Source: an uncultured Mollicutes bacterium
GTDB taxonomy: Bacteria > Bacillota_I > Bacilli_A > Acholeplasmatales > Anaeroplasmataceae
Assembly (NCBI GenBank): GCA_945923475.1
Contig: CAMELE010000001.1
Span: 1-35,874 of the forward strand
Direction: 5' to 3'
DNA length: 35,874 nt
In this document: positions 926-35,041 of the stretch, one piece after another
How positions within the stretch are numbered: the first letter of the stretch is position 1
How the letters are laid out: the number at the start of each line of letters is the position of its first letter
Translations under genes and position numbers: made by a program
The notes under the pieces: generated by a model
Told to the model about the DNA's origin: nothing
What the model saw: only the letters and a program-made list of their open reading frames with translations
Databases searched by the model: none

Positions 926-1207
926 AAATATATTTCTTATAATCTTTAATAAAACGCCAATAATCTTCTCGATTTTATTTTGAGGGTTTTAATTAGGTTA
1001 ACCCACAACCTCCGATAGTGTGTCTACTGGACCAAGGAAATACCCGATCGCCGTATTTCGCTCTTTAAAAGATGGACGCTTCTAATCCTACTTCCTATCG
1101 TATAAAAGGACTTATCAATGACTTTTATACATATTGCCTTTATTACCTTTATAAACAAATTAGCATTACCCAGTGCTACCGCGAGGAGGTTTTGTTTTTA
1201 GCACCGC

Positions 1208-1294
1208 AGCCCCGCTGGGATTCGAACCCAGAACGACTCCTTCAAAGGGAAAACGGTTTTAGAGACCGCCGTGTTAACCGTTACACTACGGGGC
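1208..1294 (-). tRNA. amber suppressor tRNA (anticodon CTA, reads UAG); class-II-like long variable arm
   Basis: Reverse complement gives D-arm TAGTGTAACGGTTAACAC, anticodon stem GCGGT/ACCGT, loop CTCTAAA (U33, anticodon CUA, A37), ~20-nt variable region, T-arm CTGGG-TTCGAAT-CCCAG. Acceptor GCCCCGT/GCGGGGC carries a 1-nt register irregularity. Confidence 0.75.
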
Positions 1295-1299
1295 AATAA

Positions 1300-3469: not shown

Positions 3470-3982
3470 TTATTTCAAAGGCTCTAATTTAAACTCTTCG
3501 GTTAAACGATATAAATGTAAAGAAATTTTACGATGACAATTAGGACACAAAATACATAAATTATTTGGATCATTATTGTCATGGTTTTCATCTTTATGAT
3601 GAACTTCTAAAATGCGTTTTTCTTCATCATAGCCGCATACAGCACATTTATGTTCATATAAATCAAAAGCAGTTTGACGATAATTATTTCCTTTAAAAGC
3701 AAAATGATTTTCGCCACTTTTAAATAAGGTATTATTCATACCATTAGCACAACTTCTACTACAATAAACATTTCCAGTAATAGAACGCTTTAATTCTGAA
3801 TTTCTTTTCCAAACTTCTTTTCCACAATTCGCACAATGACATAATGTGCTTCCTTTATGACTGCGACATTCAGATGAACAATAAAATGCTGAATTCTCTT
3901 TTAATTTAGCATTATATCGCTTTAATTCAATCTCATATTCTTTATTACATACTACACATTTCACTTTTACCATTGTCGGCAT
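3470..3982 (-). CDS. HNH homing endonuclease, standard code, about 170 aa
   Basis: ORF track 3470..4045. HNH motif EVHHKDENHDNNDPNNLCILCPNCH plus several CxxC zinc-finger pairs. Start refined to the ATG preceded by AAAGGAG (MPTMVKVKC...); ATGs at 4000 or 4045 are alternatives. Confidence 0.8.
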   Translation of the reverse strand: MPTMVKVKCVVCNKEYEIELKRYNAKLKENSAFYCSSECRSHKGSTLCHCANCGKEVWKRNSELKRSITGNVYCSRSCANGMNNTLFKSGENHFAFKGNNYRQTAFDLYEHKCAVCGYDEEKRILEVHHKDENHDNNDPNNLCILCPNCHRKISLHLYRLTEEFKLEPLK

Positions 3983-4096
3983 ATAACCAACTCCTTTCAT
4001 TATTATATGAAAGTTAGGTAAGAATGATTGTTCTCGAAAGACCAAAATCTGTCCAAAAGATTATGTGAACCCGATCTAGCGATCGAGCGATCGCAA

Positions 4097-4575: not shown

Positions 4576-5433
4576 TTAAGTAGTTAAAAACGCATTATAA
4601 CCTTTTGATTTTAAATCATTAATTACTTTTATAGCATTTGCTTTGACAGAAAAAGCACCAACTTGAACTTTATAATACTTGCCAATCTTACGAATATAAG
4701 CATTTTTATAACCTGCTCCAATAGTATCAGGTAATGCTTTAATTTTCAATAAGAAAGCGTCAGCATTAGATTTAGATCCAAAAGCACCAAGTTGAACGCG
4801 ATAAATAATTTGCGGTTTAAGGTAAATAGCCACTACATTATCGACAGCGCGATTGCCCCAATCTTTAGTGATACAAGCTCCATTATGAAGAACTTTCGTG
4901 CTACCACCGCCATCAAGGTTAATTGCATAATCAACTTTTAATGCTAAAAGTAAATTCTACATTTCTGTAAATGCCATGCCTGGCTTTTCAATAGCAATTA
5001 AATAAATATTAAATTTATTATATGCTAATACCGTTCTACGAGCTTTATAATTTAACTCTTTGGCATAAGTAATTTGAGTTTTTTTGCCAGCCTTAATTAA
5101 TACTGGATAACCGCTAACAAAATCTTCAAACTTTTCTGTTCCAATTATACCGTATTTCAATTCACCATTAATGATACCAAAGCCTTCTTTATAAGAAGAA
5201 GTGGAATTAATGATTATACCATTATCCATATAATTAAAACAAGTGCTGCCATTATCCATGCTAAAGAAACCACCATTAGTTAAAATAGTAGGTTTAACCG
5301 CGCAACTATCATAGTATTGCTTTAAAGTCTAACGCGGTTGAGCGCATAAGGCCATATCTAACTTACTAATTTCTTCTTTTGGAATTTCAATAATTTTTAC
5401 ATATGAATAATTGCTTGGAGAATATATCTTCAT
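4576..5433 (-). CDS. phosphodiester-glycosidase-like (DUF2233-type) protein with two C-terminal SPOR-like peptidoglycan-binding repeats; 285 aa with two in-frame TAG codons
   Basis: With TAG as sense, track ORFs 4957..5259 and 4576..4833 join upstream sequence into one 858-nt frame. Hallmarks: ILTNGGFF and NLDGGGST (DUF2233-like), YRVQLGAFGSKSNA and YKVQVGAFSVKANA (SPOR-like). ATG at 5433 after AAGGAAGG. Confidence 0.65.
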
Positions 5434-5493
5434 CAAATCACCTTCCTTAATATTTTTAAGGTTTCAATGACTTTTATTAATGAAATATACCCT

Positions 5494-5570
5494 TGGCATC
5501 CCCGGAGCGATTCGAACGCCCGACACAAGGATTAGAAATCCTTTGTTCTATCCAACTGAACTACGGGGAC
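5494..5570 (-). tRNA. tRNA-Arg (anticodon TCT), CCA encoded
   Basis: Acceptor GTCCCCG/CGGGGAT, D-arm GTTC-AGTTGGATA-GAAC, anticodon stem AAGGA/TCCTT with loop TTTCTAA, T-arm GGGCG-TTCGAAT-CGCTC. Confidence 0.8.
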
Positions 5571-5686
5571 AAATTCGCTACAAGACTCTTCATTCTTCTT
5601 AATCCCATATTAAGCGCTTATTGCAAGCAAAAAAGTTGCTGTATGAGTCTTTATTTAGTTAAGAAAGGAAATACCATGATAATGGT

Positions 5687-5775
5687 AGGGCGAGGGAGAC
5701 TCGAACTCTCCATTGAGCGATTTGGCCTGTGAATTAGGCCTTGAACCTAAATCTTCGTAGTACTACCGTTATTTT
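5687..5775 (-). tRNA. tRNA-like element, fold unresolved (alternative T-arms GAGAG-TTCGAGT-CTCCC and TTAGG-TTCAAGG-CCTAA; CCA ends present)
   Basis: Hand folding gives two competing structures. No single canonical cloverleaf could be built. Confidence 0.3.
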
Positions 5776-5842
5776 ACCATTTAAACTACTCACAGATAAG
5801 TCGCCTAGTCTAGCCTTTGACTTACCACCCCAGATCGGCGAG

Positions 5843-6361
5843 TCAAGAAACCCGCGATTTCAACCAATAAACTGACATTCGTTCATTAGGCTGATTTGTC
5901 ATTTCACCTTTTGGCCCTAAGATTTCAGGATAAGGCCAAACATATTCATTAGCAGTCTTTTCATCAGGAAATTCAATTTCTGCATAGCAAAATTTCCCAT
6001 CAACTTCACTAATTTCAATCAAACGATTAGGATTGTAAATATCTTCAACCATGTAATAATCCTTAATAATAGGATTATAACCTTCATGTCGAGTTTTCTT
6101 AATCATTTCATAGAAATCTGAGGAAATTGGCGTTTCAATTTCTTCACGAGAAAGACCATCACCATATTTATAAGTCATCTTATAATCAACTTGATTGGTT
6201 TTAAGATTAATGGCTTTCCGCACTCGAATTTCTTCAAGCACTTTACCATCATTATCAAAGTCAATCATAAGATAGATTTGTTCAATTTTCTTATGACGGA
6301 CACTTTTTTCCTTCATCCAAGAAGGAATATTTTTAATATCAAACTTACGTTCGATTTCCAT
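5843..6361 (-). CDS. CYTH-domain (triphosphate-tunnel metalloenzyme / CyaB-like) protein, 172 aa
   Basis: N-terminal MEIERKF... is the CYTH EXEXK signature. Ends in TGA. Confidence 0.65.
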   Translation of the reverse strand: MEIERKFDIKNIPSWMKEKSVRHKKIEQIYLMIDFDNDGKVLEEIRVRKAINLKTNQVDYKMTYKYGDGLSREEIETPISSDFYEMIKKTRHEGYNPIIKDYYMVEDIYNPNRLIEISEVDGKFCYAEIEFPDEKTANEYVWPYPEILGPKGEMTNQPNERMSVYWLKSRVS

Positions 6362-6780: not shown

Positions 6781-7920
6781 TTAATAAAGATACTGTTCAA
6801 TAGTATTTGCGACCTTAGTTAAAACAACAGACTTAATCACGCGCTCATTTTTAGCCTTTTCGATAGCTTCCTTACGCTTTTCTACATTGCTGATCGTCCA
6901 AAAGTCATCAGGATCAATGTAAATTTCAACCTTTTTCGGATCGGCCGTAATCATACCCTTTTCAATCTTAATTGAATCAGGAGTCAAGGCATAACGAATA
7001 GTCTTACTATCTGAGGCATAACCATCATACCATCTTTTATGATCGGCATTAGGATTGCTAAACAAATTAACTGAAACACCATAGGTATTATACACATCAC
7101 CATTTACCGTAGTAATAGTGATATTGAAACGAACATTGGAAGTTTGAGAAATATTAAGATCTTCAAGAGTTTCTGCCACACCATAACCCTGATTAAGTTC
7201 AAAAGCAATCGCGCGAAGATAATCATAAGTCATATTGGTAGTACGAGAAAAATTCACAATATCCTTAATACCACTCGCATATTTAGGCTTAACCTTATCA
7301 GTAAGATATTCTACAATCTCTTCCTCTGTTGGATAAGTAATCTTAAAATGATAATGAAAACGACCAGGCCGATTCAATAGATAAGTGCTAAGTCGATCAA
7401 CTTCATTACAAGTAATAACGAAAAGCTTCTTACCATTATCAAGACCATCAAAAAGAGAAAGCATTTCCTCCTGCGGAGAGGGGCCCGCATGGTCGTCAGA
7501 GTTATTAGAGAAATTCTTTTCAAACTCATCAAAAATAATTACGACTTCTTGCTCGATACTGGAAATAAAATCTGCGATACCGGGCACATAAGTATTAGCC
7601 AAGAGAACAGGATATCCGCTTTCAATAGCGTGATGAGAAAGAATACGAGCAAACAATGACTTGCCAATACCCTTCTGACCACTTAAAATAACACCAAGAT
7701 TACGGTCTGAATACTTAAAAGAATTAAGCACCTTATTGACTTTAACTTCGTGATTACCATAAATTTTTTCCTCATTGACCGCAAGGTCTGGACGAGAAGA
7801 AAGATAAAAACCTGCCATTTTATTAAAGCAGATTTCAAAAGACATAAGCGGAAGTCGCTTATAAGTCTTAACGTCCTCGCCATAAATCTGATAGCGAGAA
7901 CCAGCATTTACAATATTCAT
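6781..7920 (-). CDS. AAA+ family ATPase, about 379 aa
   Basis: Walker A GQKGIGKS, Walker B VVIIFDEFE. Start refined to MNIVNAG, preceded by AAGAGGA. The longer track ORF start overlaps tRNA-Ser. Confidence 0.8.
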   Translation of the reverse strand: MNIVNAGSRYQIYGEDVKTYKRLPLMSFEICFNKMAGFYLSSRPDLAVNEEKIYGNHEVKVNKVLNSFKYSDRNLGVILSGQKGIGKSLFARILSHHAIESGYPVLLANTYVPGIADFISSIEQEVVIIFDEFEKNFSNNSDDHAGPSPQEEMLSLFDGLDNGKKLFVITCNEVDRLSTYLLNRPGRFHYHFKITYPTEEEIVEYLTDKVKPKYASGIKDIVNFSRTTNMTYDYLRAIAFELNQGYGVAETLEDLNISQTSNVRFNITITTVNGDVYNTYGVSVNLFSNPNADHKRWYDGYASDSKTIRYALTPDSIKIEKGMITADPKKVEIYIDPDDFWTISNVEKRKEAIEKAKNERVIKSVVLTKVANTIEQYLY

Positions 7921-9370: not shown

Positions 9371-10012
9371 TTAAATATATTTCCAGATATAACCATAAGC
9401 AGATTTTCGTTTACCATTCGCGCATTCTGCTATATGACTTCTAACTCCAGAACTATAATTTAAACATTTTTTATTTTTATAACACCACTATCCAGCTTCA
9501 GCTACTGATTCAAATGAATTAAGTAAATCTCCATTTTTATCATATTGTTTAATTGCTTTAGATTTTTCTTTTCTTAAATTTTCATTCGCTCGATTAATTA
9601 TCTAAATACAATTTTCTTTTGCTATTGAATAAACTAAATCTAGACTACAATGAAATAGTTCAGCTATTTCTATTGGACGAGGATTTATTTTTAATGCTTT
9701 TAAAATTTCTTTATGGTCATAAATTAATTTGCCATCGCCACCTTTAGTAGCATTATATCCATTCTAATAAGCATTTAATTTTTCAATCCAATAAATTTCT
9801 CTTTCTTCTGGATCGTCAGTCTCTTCAATTAGCTCAATATGAAAATGTTCTACTCCATATTTTCGCATTGCCGAATATAATGGACGTTTTTCATTGCGCT
9901 CTCTAAAAGCATCTTTACAATGTTCTTTAAAACGCTTCTCAATAAAAAACTCAGTTTTTCCAATATAAATTTTCTAATTTACATCATTGATAATTTTATA
10001 AATATATGCCAT
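9371..10012 (-). CDS. GIY-YIG homing endonuclease, 213 aa, with five in-frame TAG codons
   Basis: Minus-strand translation MAYIYKIINDVN*KIYIGKTEFFIEKRFKEHC...YWIEKLNAY*NGYNATKGGDG.... 642 nt, an exact multiple of 3, ends TAA. Invisible in the standard-code ORF track. Confidence 0.8.
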
Positions 10013-10146
10013 ATTCTTATCATCCTCCATTATTTTATGGAGTTTTTGGTTGCTAAATTATCTAAACGCAACCAAAATTTTAGTCCCACCGTTAGTTTAA
10101 ACAGAGCATACCATCGTGAAGGTGTGTGGTGACATTTTATGCTCCT

Positions 10147-12912: not shown

Positions 12913-12983
12913 GTCCGGAAAATGGATTTGAACCATTAACTTAATCTTGAAGGATTATGACCTAACCTTTAGTCTATTCTGGA
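12913..12983 (-). tRNA. tRNA-like element with a 6-nt anticodon loop (CTTCAA; would read UCA if a 7th nucleotide is recruited); possibly a pseudogene
   Basis: Acceptor TCCAGAA/TTCCGGA (one A-C mismatch), D-arm GACT-AAAGGTTA-GGTC, stem TAATC/GATTA, T-arm AATGG-TTCAAAT-CCATT. Confidence 0.3.
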
Positions 12984-13379: not shown

Positions 13380-14810
13380 TTAACTAAAATTATGTATAAA
13401 GTCTTTTAAAGACCTAAAATTATTAACTTTTTCTTCATCAGCATCTCTAAAACACCAAGGACACAAATACATATCAGTTCCTTTATGATAGTGAATATCC
13501 TCTGTATAATATAAATTATTACAACATTCGCATCGTTTACAATAAGTATCCGCACAACTATCGCAAACTAATTCATTCTCATCGCCTACGGAATTTGCTT
13601 CATCAAGGATTATACGAGAACCGCAACAAGCACAATAACCATAATTATCGTCTTCGTTTACTCCATAATTGAATTCACAGTCTCCACATCGCATATATTC
13701 TCCACTTTCGATAATAGTTTTACCGCATTGTAAACAAGGGACATCACCGCCAATAGACCAATGAGGAAGATCAGTCTCTAATGGATAATAATACAATTTT
13801 AAACTATAAATGGGTAAATAGCAAGAAGAATAAAGCAAATCATTATATTGAAGAGTATGCTCGCCAATATCTTCAACAATATCACCAATAGGATATAAAC
13901 GAGATAAAATAGGAATCCATGTCTCGGATAATCCAATAGTTTCTTCGTCAAAAGAAGTAGTGCTCATCCTATTAGAAACAGTATTAATACCTCCATCTAC
14001 CCATTCACGCAACTGAAAAGTCTTATCAAAAGTATTGATAATATCTTTAATTTTAATTAAAGCATTGGTTGTCATAAAAGGATATTGACGACCAGCCATT
14101 AAACCGCGTCGCTTATCTTCCATATAAAGAAGCATACGCCATTTCTTAGAATTCCAAAGAACATCTTCGGGGAAATGCGGAAGTTTCTGATTCTCTGCTC
14201 CGCGCAAATAGCAAATAAAAGTGCTTCTATCTACCATGTAAGACAAATTTCCTGCTCTATATTCGCCGTCAAGTGCATGGCAAGAGCGCCAATTATAAGT
14301 ATTTTCACTTACGCTTAAAAAATCCAAAGGATGAACTGAGAAACATAATGTTCCCTCGATCTTGTCCTCTTGGATAATACGACTTGCGTAATTCTGAATA
14401 TCTTCCAAAGAGCGTGGATTCTCTTCGAAATACTTAAAAGCCTTAACTAATTTCATTCCTCTTGGAATCTTTTTATCCTTATAAAAATAAGTATCTATAA
14501 CTGTATTGTTAAAGAATCCTTCTTTATTTACTGTAATAAAATCCTTTAAGTCTTCATTATTATAAGTATAATTAATTGTTTCAAGAAACTCTTCAAGACG
14601 ATGCTCTTTAGTTTTATCATCTAAGGAAAAAGATACCTTTTCCGGCCATTCATAAATTAAATGACCGTGAAAAAATTTAATTAAGTCTTTTTTGGCTTCG
14701 AGGAATCTTTCGAATAGTTCTTCTGTTTTTGGATTACTGATTCCTTGGGAGTAACTGATGACTTTGTTGAACTGTTTTCTAATGCTTTCGATGTCGAAGT
14801 CATATGACAT
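13380..14810 (-). CDS. large Cys-rich protein, paralog A (about 476 aa): conserved central domain plus C-terminal multi-CxxC zinc-ribbon region
   Basis: Shares GTLCFSVHPLDFLSVSEN...W.SC...GEYRAG...WNSKKWR with the 17318..18922 product, and a C-terminal CLQCG...CGDC...CACCG...CDSC...CKRCECC...CPWC. Start taken at MSYDFD by homology; the track ORF starts at 14831. Confidence 0.65.
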   Translation of the reverse strand: MSYDFDIESIRKQFNKVISYSQGISNPKTEELFERFLEAKKDLIKFFHGHLIYEWPEKVSFSLDDKTKEHRLEEFLETINYTYNNEDLKDFITVNKEGFFNNTVIDTYFYKDKKIPRGMKLVKAFKYFEENPRSLEDIQNYASRIIQEDKIEGTLCFSVHPLDFLSVSENTYNWRSCHALDGEYRAGNLSYMVDRSTFICYLRGAENQKLPHFPEDVLWNSKKWRMLLYMEDKRRGLMAGRQYPFMTTNALIKIKDIINTFDKTFQLREWVDGGINTVSNRMSTTSFDEETIGLSETWIPILSRLYPIGDIVEDIGEHTLQYNDLLYSSCYLPIYSLKLYYYPLETDLPHWSIGGDVPCLQCGKTIIESGEYMRCGDCEFNYGVNEDDNYGYCACCGSRIILDEANSVGDENELVCDSCADTYCKRCECCNNLYYTEDIHYHKGTDMYLCPWCFRDADEEKVNNFRSLKDFIHNFS

Positions 14811-17317: not shown

Positions 17318-18922
17318 TTAAAAAATCAAAGAAGGTCTTTGATTTGGGTTGGTGCCAATAGCCCAAGAAATAAATTCCTTTTCACTAATATTAAAGAGGT
17401 CTCTGCCCTTTTTAGTGAGAGTTTCTCCATCGACATAATAATTAGAGCGCCAACCATCTCTATCTTCTTCAATTTCACCATTGAAGAAGGTTTTTACTTT
17501 TTTATCCTCACAGCAATCCCAACAAATATCTGTATAGAACCCAACTGGCTTCTTCTGGAATCGAAGGCGGATTTGCTTCATGTCATCATAGTCTTTGCGG
17601 ACTCCGCAACAAGGACAAACTTCTGTGTTTTCGTCATAACAATAAGCGCAGTAAGTTCTTCCATCGACATTGTAAGTGTCATCGACATAAACAATATCAC
17701 CACACTTATCGCACTTTACTGCACCCGAACAACTTGTGCAAATGGTCATTTCTGCGTTATTCTCTCTATCATCGAGGAGAGAATCATCAAGAAGCTCTCC
17801 GCAACACATACACTCAGATTCACCCGAGTAGTTAAGATCAACGCTTTTGTCCGTAGGAATTTTAGTGGAAACGTAAGCATTATGCTCTGAGTAGATATCA
17901 TTATACATGAAATTGGTATCAAGATTGAAATAAATATTTCTGTCAAGCTCGCCAATAATGTTATTACTGTAATTATGAATCTGATTTAAATACTTGGTAT
18001 AAGGGCCAAAACCAAGATTCTGCTCAGCAAGTTTTTTAATCCAAGCAAGACAAATACTTTCAAGATTTTCATTACAATAAGGATAACCCTTAATGCCAAG
18101 GATAAGGCTTTCATCTACGATGAAAAGTTCGCGCCAACGTTTACTATTCCACATTACAGGCTTACCAGCCTTATACCAAAGTTCCATATCCTTATCAGAT
18201 TTAAGGTAAGCTTCGAGGATAATGGGAGAATTCATCATCTCAACGGTTCCCTGACGGTATTCACCACCGCCATTCTGCCATCTCATACAAGAATCCCAAC
18301 CGCAATCATTATCACTCATAGTGATATAGTCAAGAGGATGAATAGAAAGACAGAGTTCACCAGAGATATTTTTCTGATTAAGGAACTGAGAATGAGCGAT
18401 ACGGAACTTTTCATAGATATCGCGGTCAATCTCCAAGATATCACTCATCTTACCAAGCATCTTACTAAGCTTCATACCCTTATTAATCATAAGAGTTTTA
18501 TTGTTATAAGTGAATTTAAAAGATTCCCCATCATAAATGTTAGACATTAAAGGCTCAACATCCAAAAGATTTACCAGATTAAAATACTGAGTATTAGAGA
18601 TGTCTGTTTTAAGATAAAGATCTCTTACCTTATTATTAAAGGTATTTCGGAATTCATATCCATCACCATTTCTGCCGAAATAATCATAAAAATCATCACT
18701 CATATCTTCATAAGTGCGAGAATAACTTACCTTACGAGAAATGATAAGATTATCTCCCAACATTTTATAAAGACTCTGCTTATTATAGGCCCAAAAACGG
18801 AGGATGTAGTCGAGAGATGCCTTCATATCGGAACTATCTCCACCGAGGCCCGCAAAATTACGGATATACCATTCAATCTTTTCGCAATCTTCTTTGGAAA
18901 GGAGTTCAAATAAATTAGCCAT
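17318..18922 (-). CDS. large Cys-rich protein, paralog B (534 aa)
   Basis: GELCLSIHPLDYITMSDN...WDSC...GEYRQG...WNSKRWR core. C-terminal CMCCG...CTSCSGAVKCDKCG...CAYC...CPCCG...CWDCC. Confidence 0.75.
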   Translation of the reverse strand: MANLFELLSKEDCEKIEWYIRNFAGLGGDSSDMKASLDYILRFWAYNKQSLYKMLGDNLIISRKVSYSRTYEDMSDDFYDYFGRNGDGYEFRNTFNNKVRDLYLKTDISNTQYFNLVNLLDVEPLMSNIYDGESFKFTYNNKTLMINKGMKLSKMLGKMSDILEIDRDIYEKFRIAHSQFLNQKNISGELCLSIHPLDYITMSDNDCGWDSCMRWQNGGGEYRQGTVEMMNSPIILEAYLKSDKDMELWYKAGKPVMWNSKRWRELFIVDESLILGIKGYPYCNENLESICLAWIKKLAEQNLGFGPYTKYLNQIHNYSNNIIGELDRNIYFNLDTNFMYNDIYSEHNAYVSTKIPTDKSVDLNYSGESECMCCGELLDDSLLDDRENNAEMTICTSCSGAVKCDKCGDIVYVDDTYNVDGRTYCAYCYDENTEVCPCCGVRKDYDDMKQIRLRFQKKPVGFYTDICWDCCEDKKVKTFFNGEIEEDRDGWRSNYYVDGETLTKKGRDLFNISEKEFISWAIGTNPNQRPSLIF

Positions 18923-27353: not shown

Positions 27354-27533
27354 ATTATTACTTTAAGCATAGAAGACTGACTGAATGAAACCGACAAACA
27401 GGCAAAGCAACATGCCCATACCGCAGTAATAATACTTCTCATTGAGAGGCATAGTATCATCATTCAGTAGATCCATATACATAAAGCCGAAAAATACTAA
27501 TATAATAAATAGCATAATAATCATTTCTCCCAT
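27354..27533 (-). CDS. small membrane protein (59 aa)
   Basis: MGEMIIMLFIILVFFGFMYMDLLNDDTMPLNEKYYYCGMGMLLCLFVGFIQSVFYA. Below the track cutoff. Confidence 0.4.
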
Positions 27534-28258
27534 ATCTTTTTTCCTCCTCGCTTCTGCTTTCTCTTGGTCGCGGTATCAATCGTTTTTCTATGGACGCTCT
27601 CGATCTTCGCAGTCGGGCCATTTTTCATGAACTGATTCAAGTTCAAAGGGGCGGGGCCAAACACATCTACACAAACATTCTTGTGATAGATATCCGTCTC
27701 TTTATGATTGTGGTCGTGGCCGTGAAGATCGAGAGCCCAGTCCTGCTTAATCGGTTCGTGAGAAAGCATAAGTTTCTCACCAATAATGAGCGCGCCAGGA
27801 AAGACATAATCAAATAATTTATTATCAGCTTTAACTAACCAATATTCAAATGGACGATTAAAAGCATATCCCTCCTCAATTGTATAAATACAATCAGGAT
27901 ATAAACATTTCATTTCCATAAGAGCTTCATCTTTTTGATAAATTTCTTTATCAAATTTTTTCTTCCAAATTTGGCGTTGATAATTTGATGGACCAGAATC
28001 ATGATTACCCATAATTAGTATTTTTAATCCACCTCGTAATTTTTTAACGCACTCAATTTTTCCTACATCACCTAAATGAATTAATACATCCTTTTTTCCA
28101 ACTTTAGAATTAATGCTTTTTATTAATTCATCGGTAGAAAGACGATTACATCCTTTAGCTAATTCTTCATCATCAAAATGAGTGTCTGAAATTACATAAC
28201 AAGATTGATATTCTTTCCATAAATCATTAAAAAATGGATAAATGCCAGGTAAATTCAT
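27521..28258 (-). CDS. calcineurin-like metallophosphoesterase (245 aa)
   Basis: Motifs ISDTHFDD, LGDVG, GNHD, GHDHNH. Start at MNLPG; its AAGGAG RBS overlaps the stop of the gene upstream. Confidence 0.8.
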   Translation of the reverse strand: MNLPGIYPFFNDLWKEYQSCYVISDTHFDDEELAKGCNRLSTDELIKSINSKVGKKDVLIHLGDVGKIECVKKLRGGLKILIMGNHDSGPSNYQRQIWKKKFDKEIYQKDEALMEMKCLYPDCIYTIEEGYAFNRPFEYWLVKADNKLFDYVFPGALIIGEKLMLSHEPIKQDWALDLHGHDHNHKETDIYHKNVCVDVFGPAPLNLNQFMKNGPTAKIESVHRKTIDTATKRKQKRGGKKIWEK

Positions 28259-28263
28259 TAGTA

Positions 28264-29163
28264 TCACTCCTTTTGTAAATATTTATTACCAAGTAATAAG
28301 TCTAAAGTAATGTTATCACGTTCCCAATAAGGGATCCTTACTAAAGAAATATTATGAGATAAAGCATAATCATTTTTTATTTTATCTCGTTTTTGTGTAG
28401 CTTCTAATTCTCCCCAAGTAGGAACTTCCATAAAATGTTGTTCTCCGTCAAATTCAATTAATCTATTATAATCAGGTAAATAAAAGTCATATCTTAAATT
28501 ACCTAAATTTTTATATTTATATTCTTTAATATAAGTAATATTATTTTCAGATAAAATATTACTTATATGGTATTCTCCAAGAGACGTTTTTAAACAACCA
28601 CAAGAAATTTTTCTTCCACTTAATAAAGATTTACTTGAAGTATCACATTCATTACCACAATCACATCGACAATGCCAAATAATACGGTTATTTTTTCTTT
28701 CAGGTTGTTCAAATAATACAGTTAATTTACCAAAACGCTAACCAATTAAATCTTTTTTAGTTAAATTAGCTACCATTTCTTTATGTAAACACCCACAAGA
28801 CTATGTATTTCCAGTGGTTAAATCGTTAGTTGCATAATAAACAATATTACCACATTCGCATTGGCATTCCCAAATAATACGGTTATCTTTTCTTTTACCA
28901 GAATCTTTAATAACAGTTAAACGTCCAAATTTTTGGCCTACTAAATCTTTTTTGGTATTATTACTTGCTACTTCTTTCCTATAACAACCGCAAGATTTAG
29001 TGCTACCATTTCTTAACCTATTTAAACTAATACTTTTTATATTACCACAATCACACTAACATTTCCAATAAGTAGAACTATGTGTTTTAGTTTTTTCTAC
29101 ATCTATTTCTAAAGCAGTTAGACGTCCAAATTTCTAACCACTTATATCCTTATATTTTCCCAT
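28264..29163 (-). CDS. HNH-type homing endonuclease-like protein: three tandem zinc-finger modules (G-Q-[KR]-F-G-[RK]-L-T ... W-x-C-x-C-x-C-G-N ... S-C-G-C) plus a C-terminal PD-(D/E)XK-like (Vsr/DUF559-like) domain; 299 aa with four in-frame TAG codons
   Basis: Minus-strand translation MGKYKDISG*KFGRLTAL...YWKC*CDCGN...; second module DLVGQKFGRLTVI...IIWECQCECGN uses CAA at the same positions; third DLIG*RFGKLTVL...IIWHCRCDCGN. C-terminal YDFYLPDYNRLIEFDGEQHF. 900 nt, an exact multiple of 3, ends TGA. Confidence 0.75.
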
Positions 29164-29174
29164 TTATATCCTCC

Positions 29175-29450
29175 TTAAAACATATAGGCATTAAATTTAT
29201 ACATATAGAACTCTCCATCTATAAGACGAAGTTTATCAACTTCTTTATAGAATTCTACTCGCCACCAATCGGGTTTAGGAAGAGGGAGATCATAGTATTC
29301 GATTCGCTGAGTTTCCATAATATCTTCTTCGATTGCGCCTTCAATGAAAGCGAGATATAACTCTTGTATTTCTGCTTCAGAAATATTGGCGAAGGTCCAA
29401 GACTTACCATTCATTTCATCTTCAATTTTATAACAAGTAATTTCTTTCAT
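29175..29450 (-). CDS. hypothetical protein (91 aa)
   Basis: ORF track. Confidence 0.6.
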   Translation of the reverse strand: MKEITCYKIEDEMNGKSWTFANISEAEIQELYLAFIEGAIEEDIMETQRIEYYDLPLPKPDWWRVEFYKEVDKLRLIDGEFYMYKFNAYMF

Positions 29451-31267: not shown

Positions 31268-31296
31268 ATTTAAAAACTCCTTTAAAGAATAGGTTT

Positions 31297-31390
31297 AAGT
31301 TTATCGCAACAATTGAAATCTCTCATACAGCCATTTTCTTCGTTAAAACAAGAGCAACCTTTCTTGCACGTCTTTTCGAGAGATAACGGA
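31297..31390 (-). pseudogene. duplicated 3'-end fragment of the Cys-rich gene at 32194..32643, lying just downstream of the HNH gene
   Basis: 31301-31335 matches 32219-32253 at 34 of 35 positions, with further similarity beyond. Encodes ...KTCKKGCSCFNEENGCMRDFNCCDKLKPIL*, compared with ...LCYSEENGCMRDFNCCNNIKYILGN* in the intact gene. Confidence 0.55.
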
Positions 31391-32119
31391 TTAGTCGATA
31401 TTATTTCGATTTTTTGACGGAATTAGATCGTCAATAGTTAAATCTTCATATTGTAAATATGAGATACGAATTAATGGTATATTATGTTCTTTGCACCATT
31501 TATTTTTATATTCGTCTCTATCCTAAATTTTTTTAATGTCTTCTCCCCATCCTCCATCTGGTTCTGTATGTTGACGGCCATCATATTCTATAAGATATTT
31601 ATTATCAACATAAAAATCAAACCGCAAAGGATAGTTAGTTTCAGGATTACGACAATCTTTAAATTTTTTTTCCATTTCAAAAGGGATATTATTCTCAGTT
31701 AATAATTGAGAAATTTTTAATTCTCCAATTGAAATTTTTAAACATCCACAAGAATTTACTTTATGAGTTCGTAATTCATAAGGTCTTACGTAGACAATGT
31801 TTCCGCAATCACACTAACACTATATTTTATAAGTGCCACTTGGTGATCTATGATTAAAGTCTCTTTTTATTGCGGTTAATTTACCGAAGCGATGACCTAT
31901 AATATCATCACTTTTATGACGATTCATTCGTTCTTCTTGAATTAAACATCCGCAAGACTTACATCCGCCCGAAGTTAAAAGATTTGTATAAGCGAAATGC
32001 TCTTTACCACAATCACAACGGCATTTCCAAACAATATTACCATGTTTACGTTCAGAAGTTTCTTCTATAACAGTTAGCTTTCCAAAACGCTAACCAATTA
32101 AATTTTGTTTTTTTGCCAT
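31391..32119 (-). CDS. HNH-type homing endonuclease-like protein (paralog of 28264..29163; two zinc-finger modules plus a PD-(D/E)XK-like C-terminus), 242 aa with four in-frame TAG codons
   Basis: MAKKQNLIG*RFGKLTVI...VWKCRCDCGK...CKSCGC...IIGHRFGKLTAI...KI*C*CDCGN...NSCGCL...RFDFYVDNKYLIEYDGRQH...KKI*DRDEYK. 729 nt, an exact multiple of 3, ends TAA. Confidence 0.75.
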
Positions 32120-32193
32120 AAATAAAATCTCCTTTTACAAGTTTTTGCGACTCCCCTTAATATTAAGGAAATTTTATTTATATTTTATGAAAC

Positions 32194-32643
32194 TTAATTG
32201 CCCAAAATATACTTAATATTATTGCAACAATTGAAATCTCTCATACAGCCATTCTCTTCTGAATAACAAAGACAGCCATTTTGGCATGTAGTTTTTACAA
32301 TGTCGGGATTACGGACATTCGTGACGGCTTGCATATTTCCAACGATTTCTCGCTTTTGGATCATTTTTGGCGTGTCGGGAGAAGCATCAAATGCGCAGTT
32401 CACATTTTGTTCACAATTTGCGCATGTGCTAAGTTTTGCGAAACATTTATCGCAATAAGTGTTTCCTTTGTCGTCAATAATCATTTGCTTATGGAAAATT
32501 GGAGTATGACAAACTTTACAAATATACTTAGTGTCGCTAAAGCTATTACAAACGGGCTGATTGGGGTCGGGTGAATATCCTACTATTGGACAAGCGCCAT
32601 TAGACAAAAGGTAAGCGCAATTCTTACATAGGAAAGTCATCAT
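32194..32643 (-). CDS. Cys-rich protein (149 aa, many CxxC pairs)
   Basis: ORF track. Its 3' end is the source of the duplicated fragment at 31297-31390. Confidence 0.65.
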   Translation of the reverse strand: MMTFLCKNCAYLLSNGACPIVGYSPDPNQPVCNSFSDTKYICKVCHTPIFHKQMIIDDKGNTYCDKCFAKLSTCANCEQNVNCAFDASPDTPKMIQKREIVGNMQAVTNVRNPDIVKTTCQNGCLCYSEENGCMRDFNCCNNIKYILGN

Positions 32644-33846: not shown

Positions 33847-34404
33847 TTGACTAAAAAGGAATTGATAACTTTTTTCCACGACAAATACTATTATAAGAAA
33901 GGTAGTATGAGAGCGGTTAAAGATATTGAATAGATTGCTGAAAAGGAACATTATCAAGTTATAAAAAATAGTCCTGATAATTATGATTTATATGAAACAG
34001 GAGCGGTATTAGATTTTACTAAACCTATTAAAATAAATAGAGAGATCCCGCCTTTGGCTTCACATAAAGCATATAATGGAGTTCCGCTTTATTTATTTAC
34101 ATACACATTCGCTTATTATATTAACTTTGAGTTATGGTGTTATGTAATGAATAAAAAGAATGGAGATTATATTCATTTCAATGATATTTTAAATACAGAT
34201 ATTTAGTATTGTAAAGATATAGAAGATATTGTATTTAATTTTGACTTATTAGTTCATCATGGATACCTAAGAGAGCGTAAAGATTGTCTCGAATTTTATG
34301 CTTATCCGATTAAAGATGGAATTCAACTTCCATTAGATTATATTTTTCAATCGGAAGATAATAAAAAAGTATCAAGATTGGCTCCATTTAAATATTTAGA
34401 ATAA
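33847..34404 (+). CDS. hypothetical protein (185 aa) with two in-frame TAG codons; first gene of the plus-strand block
   Basis: AAAAGGAGGAGGA RBS, then TTG 8 nt later (an in-frame ATG at 33907 is an alternative). Open through two TAGs to TAA at 34402-34404. No standard-code ORF exists here. Confidence 0.5.
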
Positions 34405-34433: not shown

Positions 34434-34610
34434 ATGCCAAATGCTAATAAAATTATATATTCATTAAGAATATATTTAGAATTAGAAAAGAAAGGAATAT
34501 ATCCAATAACAACAACCGCAAATCCGCGGAAGCCTAACTTTATGTGTTGGATATATGAAAAGACTCCGGAGTTAGTTTAGGCTCTGGATGAATTAATGGG
34601 CAAGAAATAA
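34434..34610 (+). CDS. small DUF5659-like protein (58 aa) with one in-frame TAG
   Basis: AAAGGAG RBS. MPNANKIIYSLRIYLELEKKGIYPI...NFMCWIYEKTPELV*ALDELMGKK. The family assignment is from memory of the motif. Confidence 0.45.
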
Positions 34611-35041
34611 TGAGCCTATTTAAGATTCATAAAGAAGTTTTATAGAGTGGTAATTTTACTTCAATAAACACTCCTACGTTGGGTTAGGCTACTGGGAGTT
34701 TAACATTGAATGGTTTAAGATTATATTTATATTTAGCTGGTAATACTAATAATTTTGTTTGGACTATGAATCCGACCGCCTATGCCAATTGGTTAGGAAA
34801 AGATTATTCAAAGGCGAGTGAAGCAAGGGCAGTCCGCAAGGCTATTGATGCTGGCATAAATGATTTAAAGAATAATAACTATTTAGTCGAAACCGCGGAA
34901 GGAAAATATGATTTTTATGATAATTGTAATGATTTTCCGGAACAAAAAGTTCCGAAAGGATAGGTTGTTATTCAAAAATAGACAATTAGTAATAGTAAAG
35001 TGGAACAAAAAGTTCCGAAAGAAGACAAATTTGAGTTTTAA
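34610..35041 (+). CDS. putative replication-initiator / replisome-organizer-like protein (winged-helix N-terminal domain); 143 aa if the three in-frame TAGs are read through, or ending at 34963 if the third TAG terminates
   Basis: ATG overlaps the preceding stop as TAATG. LNGLRLYLYLAGNTNNFVWTM...LGKDYSKASEARAVRKAIDAGINDL resembles DnaD / phage replisome-organizer wHTH domains. Track ORF 34706..34963 is the TAG-free core. The iteron cluster lies at its 3' end. Confidence 0.5.

Follow-up and report, generated by a model that had tools for sequence, protein, structure and literature searches.

Vsr of Escherichia coli (1cw0/1vsr) is a stand-alone very-short-patch repair nickase that acts at T:G mismatches and has its own zinc site and intercalating Trp residues. 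Among mobile, phage-borne enzymes, I-Bth0305I and the EDxHD family, including the free-standing 'Hef' type, combine the catalytic residues E...D...H...D with a DNA-binding region located N-terminal to the nuclease (PMC3239194). Free-standing endonuclease genes have also been described in T-even phages and ICP1 (Seg/Mob, 'intronless homing'), where they sit between conserved genes or at their ends, are present in some relatives and absent from others, and are accompanied by flanking co-conversion and sequence-exchange boundaries (PMC10055350). Furthermore, gut phages using genetic code 15 read TAG as Gln by means of a phage-encoded suppressor tRNA (10.1101/2021.08.26.457843; PMC9523058; PMC10607447), and recoded gut phages keep a block of early-looking genes without recoding. 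In the Agate phages, a TGA-recoded intron endonuclease lies in standard-code surroundings, for which its authors proposed delayed production (10.1101/2021.08.26.457843). Here, we describe two genes, A and B, in a stretch of 35,874 nucleotides (contig CAMELE010000001.1 of assembly GCA_945923475.1, deposited as an uncultured Mollicutes bacterium; hereafter the window). Gene A (28264..29163, minus strand, 299 aa in code 15) and its paralog B (31391..32119, minus strand, 242 aa) are very probably free-standing Vsr-like homing endonuclease genes of a code-15 phage, with predicted homing and a proposed gating of their expression by TAG. The type of gene and the code are of known kinds; mildly novel are the array of five-cysteine (Cys5) modules and the concentration of TAG in selfish nuclease genes.

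Like the members of the I-Bth0305I family, A appears to combine the E...D...H...D residues, with the same D-to-H spacing, with an N-terminal DNA-binding region, and to be phage-borne and mobile. It differs from the prototype in having three Cys5 modules instead of two NUMOD2/helix-turn-helix (HTH) motifs, in being written in code 15 and in showing no sequence-level match to 3r3p. In addition, A lies between genes and B at the 3' end of a gene, whereas the prototype resides in a group I intron or intein. Vsr, compared to A, is without a modular N-terminal array and is not mobile. With the free-standing genes of the T-even phages and ICP1, A and B share their placement with respect to conserved genes, between them or at an end, their presence or absence among relatives, and the co-conversion and exchange boundaries at their flanks. 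However, the enzymes of those phages are GIY-YIG or HNH, whereas A and B are predicted to be Vsr-like, although the window also contains two GIY-YIG genes and one HNH gene. The phage studied here resembles the code-15 gut phages in its decoding of TAG as Gln, its suppressor tRNA and its unrecoded block of early-looking genes, and, like the Agate phages, it shows preferential recoding of an endonuclease set among standard-code genes. It differs from the Agate phages in that the codon is TAG and not TGA, in that the endonucleases are free-standing and not intron-encoded, and in that four endonuclease genes of two nuclease classes are biased within one 36-kb window. PHROGs 374, 559, 9084 and 7140 and Pfam DUF2726, which recur below, are database bins and not characterised systems.

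The mobility of A is best seen in comparison with related genomes. With the metallophosphatase gene immediately downstream of A (27521..28258, minus strand; Pfam Metallophos) as a probe, eleven collinear relatives were obtained from IMG/VR. The site of A is empty in seven genomes (L013-L019), in which the sequence TAAGGAGGATATAAATGATTCCTGG comprises the stop of the upstream gene, a ribosome-binding site (RBS) and the metallophosphatase start. It holds A in four genomes, namely the window, L009 (96.7% identical) and the more distant L001 (69%) and L002 (64%). In L010-L012 the site is taken by a different family member, 38% identical and with 12 TAG codons. In this member (5059-5988), one TAG takes the place of the S.GE Glu that is invariant elsewhere, and a second falls on the near-invariant Gln of the DG.QH motif. 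Comparison of the window and L009 with the empty sites of L013-L019 places the left junction at 29164..29177 (minus), where the TAA stop of the upstream gene is followed by GGAGGATATAA. The RBS at this junction leads into the metallophosphatase start in the endonuclease-less genomes and into the ATG of A (29161-29163) here; gene A starts exactly at the former metallophosphatase start codon and uses the resident RBS. The junction sequences further indicate that the two sense codons before the stop of A (28267..28272, minus) spell AAGGAG and provide the metallophosphatase gene with a new RBS. Since this RBS is part of the end of A itself (AAG GAG TGA), it is carried by the cassette.

The flank of A is divergent as well. 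Nucleotide identity between the metallophosphatase gene of the window and those of the endonuclease-less genomes is 45-48% beside A and rises to at least 87% after ~450 nt, and the L010-type element has a shorter divergent tract of ~150 nt. The ~450-nt gradient reads as the footprint of a co-converted foreign flank, and with such a flank beside A the carrier's own allele would be resistant. The metallophosphatase gene probably carries or adjoins the homing target of A. In L001 and L002, none of the neighbouring genes is as well conserved as A, and at a third site, downstream of the metallophosphatase gene, yet another family member is found in L018 only.

Gene B had been picked out in a first-pass annotation of the window's letters as a second paralog with two modules. 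This gene is real: it runs on the minus strand, has two Cys5 modules followed by the Vsr-like domain, and contains four in-frame TAG codons (10, 100, 102 and 199). Its site is occupied in two genomes and empty in nine other relatives. In L013, B is 99.0% identical at the nucleotide level and the metallophosphatase gene 72%. The Cys-rich gene at 32194..32643 (minus) is the probable target gene of B. Its last ~35 codons are a replacement copy brought along with B (region 32194-32300, minus), and a remnant of ~105 nt of its original 3' end lies, displaced and untranslated, downstream of B (31268..31390, minus). B arrived as a cassette with a replacement 3' end, the old end being left as the remnant. 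A perfect palindrome of 14 nt, CCTTAATATTAAGG (32155-32168), is located in the spacer of 74 nt that precedes B; it is conserved in L013 and could be an operator or a hairpin.

Presence or absence at a fixed site among collinear genomes, together with flanking co-conversion, is found at the sites of both genes. The window yielded no match to an intron RNA family, and A and B do not lie in a group I intron or intein. As judged from these genome comparisons, A and B are mobile free-standing homing endonuclease genes. The locus provides a clean natural example of intronless homing, in which a site may be empty, hold the gene or hold another family member, the flank shows graded co-conversion, and a cassette brings a replacement gene end.

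In the proposed mechanism, the A enzyme would, in a mixed infection, cut alleles without the endonuclease close to where the metallophosphatase gene starts, and the B enzyme would cut them in the 3' end of the gene at 32194-32643. Recombinational repair would then copy the endonuclease gene and 0.1-0.45 kb of flank into the cut genome, with the carrier's own allele being immune through its diverged or replaced flank. Every family copy has a TAG within the first 7-20 codons, so a full-length enzyme needs the suppressor tRNA and would be made only once this phage tRNA is available. The expression of A would be uncoupled from that of its TAG-free neighbours, with which it's apparently co-transcribed. 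At 29875-29816 on the minus strand, a strong terminator-like hairpin (13 bp and a T-run) is directly followed by a promoter-like site, TTGATT-17-TATAAT, which suggests that A and the other genes from 29782 to 27521 belong to a single transcription unit. A promoter scan returned 35 matches compared to 28 +/- 5 in shuffled sequence, which is not above expectation, and this pair is its only noteworthy result.

The coordinates of A had been given correctly, the frame being that of the minus strand, with the start ATG at 29163-29161 and the stop TGA at 28266-28264. A plus-strand reading of 28264-29163 was discarded, as it contains no open reading frame and its translation is meaningless. Gene A is 98% identical to database cluster P0001 and has 7681 database homologs at E<=1e-5. 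The ratio of nonsynonymous to synonymous substitution rates (dN/dS) over the TAG-containing frame is 0.21-0.31 for A (dS ~1) and 0.18 for B. Together with the 496 copies of the Cys5 module found in 119 database homologs, these values place the pattern of gene A far beyond chance, and a dN/dS of 0.21-0.31 at dS ~1 excludes a pseudogene.

The nuclease domain of A occupies its C-terminal part (aa ~193-299; 28267..28587, minus). In an AlphaFold2 model of the protein, with a predicted local distance difference test score (pLDDT) of 88, the structural neighbours of the fold are Vsr, I-Bth0305I and other PD-(D/E)XK folds, and an HNH fold is not among the matches. The catalytic domain of A is thus predicted to have the Vsr-like fold by which EDxHD or Vsr-like homing endonucleases are recognised. 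In an alignment of 35 homologs (A1), the residues E197, D226, E237, D239, H243, D260 and K263 are invariant, as are all five Cys of each module. E197, D226, H243 and D260 would fit the E-D-x-H-D signature (PMC3239194), with a D226-to-H243 spacing of 17 that equals the D196-to-H213 spacing of I-Bth0305I, whereas the H-to-D spacing differs (17 compared to 9). On the basis of the fold neighbours and these invariant residues, gene A is predicted to encode a single nuclease domain, Vsr-like and EDxHD-type, of the PD-(D/E)XK superfamily. The first-pass annotation had likewise seen a PD-(D/E)XK or Vsr-like domain at the C-terminus, and the motif [FY]DF...IE[FY]DG.QH...RD..K is indeed shared by the C-termini of A and B.

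The three Cys-rich N-terminal modules of ~55 aa are also present as described. Module 1 covers aa 5-60 (28984..29151, minus) and bears TAG codons 10 and 36; module 2 covers aa 72-125 (28789..28950, minus), bears TAG codon 121 and has CAA at both TAG columns of module 1; module 3 covers aa 137-190 (28594..28755, minus) and bears TAG codon 142. Each follows the pattern DL.G(Q).FG.LT, two beta strands with W.C.C.CG at their end, and S-C-G-C. To call the copies near-identical was an overstatement, as they are pairwise 44-52% identical in protein and 59-65% in DNA. The N-terminus of A has no NUMOD or HTH match, its place being taken by these three predicted beta3-alpha modules, and the module is found neither in Pfam nor in solved structures. 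By analogy, the Cys5 modules presumably bind zinc and read the DNA target, and the array would play a part comparable to that of the NUMOD motifs in other phage endonucleases. Homologs carry from 1 to 8 modules, which fits the expectation for a modular DNA-binding array. Such arrays could interest those studying or engineering DNA recognition.

The four TAG codons of A allow the decoding of this codon to be followed within one protein. In a codon-level alignment of the modules, column 6 reads TAG, CAA and TAG in A and TAG and CAT in B, and column 34 reads TAG, CAA and CGA in A and CGT and TAG in B; the remaining two TAG-bearing columns face AAA, AAG, ATT, AAT, GAA and CAT. The correspondence of TAG with CAA that had been expected from the repeats therefore holds at columns 6 and 34. 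The idea that the repeats and the paralog calibrate TAG as Gln stands, and is much strengthened by orthologs and family-wide statistics. Orthologs of A are found on two long metagenomic contigs, L001 and L002, both with TAG at codon 10, and TAG swaps with CAA or CAG at five other positions between these orthologs and A. Codon 10 (29134..29136, minus; each TAG appears as CTA on the plus strand) specifies the first Gln of the protein and is TAG in four of four A orthologs. At codon 36 (29056..29058) L001 has CAG, at codon 121 (28801..28803) L002 has CAA and L001 AAA, and at codon 142 (28738..28740) both have CAA.

Among ten family members of the phage group, the codons opposite TAG include CAA (31), AAA (19) and GAA (13), and only a few are Ser (4, all in one column) or Tyr (3) codons. 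Of the 496 module copies in the 119 homologs from databases, 303 have Q at column 6, and in each of the remaining module columns where A or B has TAG, K or Q ranks among the commonest residues. Furthermore, TAG occurs at the ~90% conserved Gln of DG.QH in L010-L012 and L018. Log-likelihoods were summed for 30 TAG positions, with the homologs limited to those sharing less than 55% identity with the clade; some of these database homologs may themselves derive from recoded phages, with TAG already translated as Q, which qualifies the resulting values. Relative to Q, these are -13 for K, -49 for R, -53 for E, -59 for L, -108 for S, -126 for W and -130 for Y. The 55 genes of the window stop with TAA (46) or TGA (9) and never with TAG. 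From this codon evidence TAG is assigned to Gln (code 15) in this phage, which gives independent, internally controlled evidence for TAG as glutamine in an uncultivated phage lineage of ~190 kb.

A tRNA suited to this decoding is encoded at 1206..1296 (minus), where ARAGORN and Rfam (tRNA, 56 bits) identify an amber-suppressor tRNA with anticodon CUA. It sits in an array of 21 tRNAs, adjacent to a tRNA-Tyr, is 90 nt long, folds as a cloverleaf without an encoded CCA, and has an unpaired U1.U72, G73, G10 and U35. None of the 21 tRNAs of the window has a UUG or CUG (Gln) anticodon. The tRNA(CUA) is near-identical in five related IMG/VR contigs, with a single C/T difference in the D-loop in two of the five, and because the six copies are 99-100% identical, a covariation analysis is impossible. 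An origin of tRNA(CUA) from the adjacent tRNA-Tyr was considered and dropped, as the overall identity of 56% is no better than that to Ser, Glu or Arg tRNAs. Glutamine identity elements of tRNAs include an unpaired 1:72, G73, the 10-25 pair and U35, and acceptor-stem changes by themselves have sufficed to give a long-arm amber tRNA-Ser the identity of a tRNA-Gln (PMC9976931); the odd shape of tRNA(CUA) does not contradict Gln.

That TAG is instead read as another amino acid, for example Ser or Tyr, could be argued from the unusual form of this tRNA. It is 90 nt long and has G73 and a variable region of 20 nt, long like that of type II tRNAs; its best pairwise identity is to a tRNA-Ser (59%), and in the anticodon arm it hardly differs from the tRNA-Tyr next to it. 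However, the variable region forms a hairpin of only 3 bp, compared to 6 bp in the phage's own tRNA-Ser, the tRNA carries the glutamine identity elements, and the likelihoods of Ser and Tyr lie 108 and 130 ln units below that of Gln, which makes such a decoding highly unlikely. Still less credit can be given to TAG being a genuine stop and A and B decaying pseudogenes or sources of short N-terminal peptides. Endonuclease genes do often decay, and under table 11 the frame of A is broken four times. On the other hand, purifying selection extends over the whole frame in lineages with dS ~1, all catalytic and Cys residues downstream of the TAG codons are invariant, TAG interchanges with CAA and CAG, some 50 other genes never need TAG as a stop, and tRNA(CUA) is present and conserved, so that we consider a stop function close to negligible. 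Similarly, the nature of the nuclease has a competing description. The first-pass annotation had called A an HNH-family endonuclease in which two nuclease-type modules are combined, in agreement with strong matches to PHROGs 374 and 559 ('HNH endonuclease'; E 3e-63 and 2e-40) and with RefSeq phage records that name homologs of both halves 'HNH endonuclease'. PHROGs 9084 ('homing endonuclease') and 7140 ('intron encoded nuclease') also match strongly. However, Pfam returns no HNH, HNH_3 or other HNH model for A or B at E<=1, whereas the true HNH gene of the window at 3470-4000 does match; the fold neighbours are Vsr, I-Bth0305I and other PD-(D/E)XK proteins; and the N-terminal modules show no His-Me finger, leaving one predicted nuclease domain where two had been proposed. 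The label can be traced to relatives with the same Cys module and an HNH_3-like tail, such as phiCP39-O gp07. An HNH enzyme is most improbable, and at the level of sequence and predicted fold this description is already refuted. Among RefSeq phage records, NC_023574, NC_015263 and NC_041872 are examples in which this Vsr-like domain is called 'HNH endonuclease', and the naming in RefSeq and in PHROGs 374 and 559 looks like a systematic mislabel. The annotation of a very common phage protein family would be corrected to a Vsr/EDxHD nuclease domain.

The TAG codons are unevenly distributed, which may reflect a translational gate. In the five endonuclease genes of the window (A, B, two GIY-YIG genes and the HNH gene), TAG makes up 17 of 38 Gln codons; in the other genes it makes up 12 of 167 (odds ratio 10.5, Fisher p 1.3e-7). 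Between 13 and 33.5 kb, the 37 minus-strand genes besides A and B have TAG at 2 of 117 Gln codons, and both of these, near the 5' ends of longest-ORF calls, probably lie upstream of the true starts. A neutral origin of this enrichment is a serious possibility, though we are inclined to doubt it. It holds that the selfish genes are AT-rich and under weak translational selection, that mutation pressure spread TAG once it had become synonymous, and that early-translated or highly expressed genes were kept TAG-free by selection. In keeping with this, the G+C content at third codon positions (GC3) of the five endonuclease genes is 0.11-0.17, compared to 0.25-0.50 in their neighbours, and CAG is absent from them. 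TAG and CAA are equal in G+C, and the TAG share, 45%, is not far from one half. The AT-rich gene for a NAGPA/SPOR protein (GC3 0.20) also has two TAG codons, and the HNH gene has a single Gln codon, so its missing TAG says nothing either way. The positions of the TAG codons speak against neutrality. Column 6 of the first module is TAG in 10 of 10 family members examined, whereas in later modules this column varies among CAA, TAG, AAA and CAT. The first Gln codon is TAG in seven of eight endonuclease lineages, which at a 45% share has a binomial p of ~0.02, the lineages not being fully independent. The analogous TGA bias in the Agate-phage intron endonuclease is significant by gene-family statistics (10.1101/2021.08.26.457843). 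On balance, a translational gate is only slightly favoured over neutral AT drift, and the earlier single observation of recoded-stop selfish nucleases is extended here to TAG and to free-standing endonucleases.

Several points weigh against A and B being Vsr-like homing endonucleases with gated expression. Cleavage, target site, zinc binding and dimerisation are all properties that we infer for A and B. Neither the protein alone nor a profile built from 35 sequences matched any PDB sequence, 3r3p included, so that the kinship with Vsr and I-Bth0305I is seen by fold comparison only, and the equivalence of the catalytic residues of A and I-Bth0305I would follow from spacing and invariance only. 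In Pfam, the C-terminal matches are below threshold: B scores 18.9 bits with DUF2726, a family of the PD-(D/E)XK clan with a gathering threshold of 24.7 bits, and A itself reaches only 16.8 bits with DUF5889. Homologs P0018 and P0029 do pass the DUF2726 threshold (25.4 and 26.0 bits). For the N-terminal module, no significant structural neighbour was found. With regard to the gate, the HNH gene at 3470-4000 is without TAG, and three non-endonuclease genes (4576-5433, 33907-34404 and 34610-35041) contain it; the latter two, on the plus strand, show that sense TAG is not confined to endonuclease genes. The gate moreover has to compete with the neutral account, in which TAG and CAA are AT-rich synonyms in genes not needed early. 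Other database signals are of no weight, as an NCBIfam search gave noise only, and Pfam hits in homologs to Myosin_N, DUF4438_C, EPF and similar models were set aside as repeat or Cys artefacts. A broader proposal would be that code-15 phages keep Vsr-like and GIY-YIG selfish nucleases behind an early TAG, with the code switch licensing late or suppressor-tRNA-dependent activity, and that the Cys5 arrays are an unrecognised modular DNA-reading unit and the enzymes a natural zinc-module nuclease; we regard this extension as speculative and rather unlikely.

The genome that hosts A and B is a large tRNA-rich phage using code 15. Related contigs of this phage are 160-197 kb in length, and megablast and tblastn searches with the window backbone found no close relative among GenBank phages. 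The two GIY-YIG homing endonuclease genes (1300-2055 and 9371-10030, minus; 5 and 4 TAG) and the true HNH homing endonuclease gene (3470-4000, minus; Pfam match, 0 TAG) lie between tRNA genes and have a GC3 of 0.11-0.15. All three are absent from the equivalent sites of L008, in which the NAGPA, 5843-6361 and AAA genes next to these sites are 96-99% identical to those of the window. Other relatives have different endonuclease genes at other sites of the tRNA array. The gene for the NAGPA (phosphodiester glycosidase) and SPOR protein (4576-5433, minus), also in the tRNA array, is 95-99% conserved in relatives and may have a cell-wall or lysis function. It has two TAG codons. Two and four are found in a pair of genes on the plus strand near the window's right end (33907-34404 and 34610-35041), which are transcribed divergently from the main block. 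Two large proteins of 476 and 534 aa (13380-14810 and 17318-18922, minus) have Cys-rich C-terminal regions, and for the 534-aa protein tblastn found no match in GenBank phages. In a tRNA-like gene at 12913-12983 (minus; 46 bits with the Rfam tRNA model), the anticodon loop comprises 6 nt, CUUCAA, and ARAGORN reports a 2-nt anticodon. The relative L005 carries an 80-nt tRNA(UCA) at 7726-7805; in the window, TGA is still a normal stop, used by 9 of the 55 genes.

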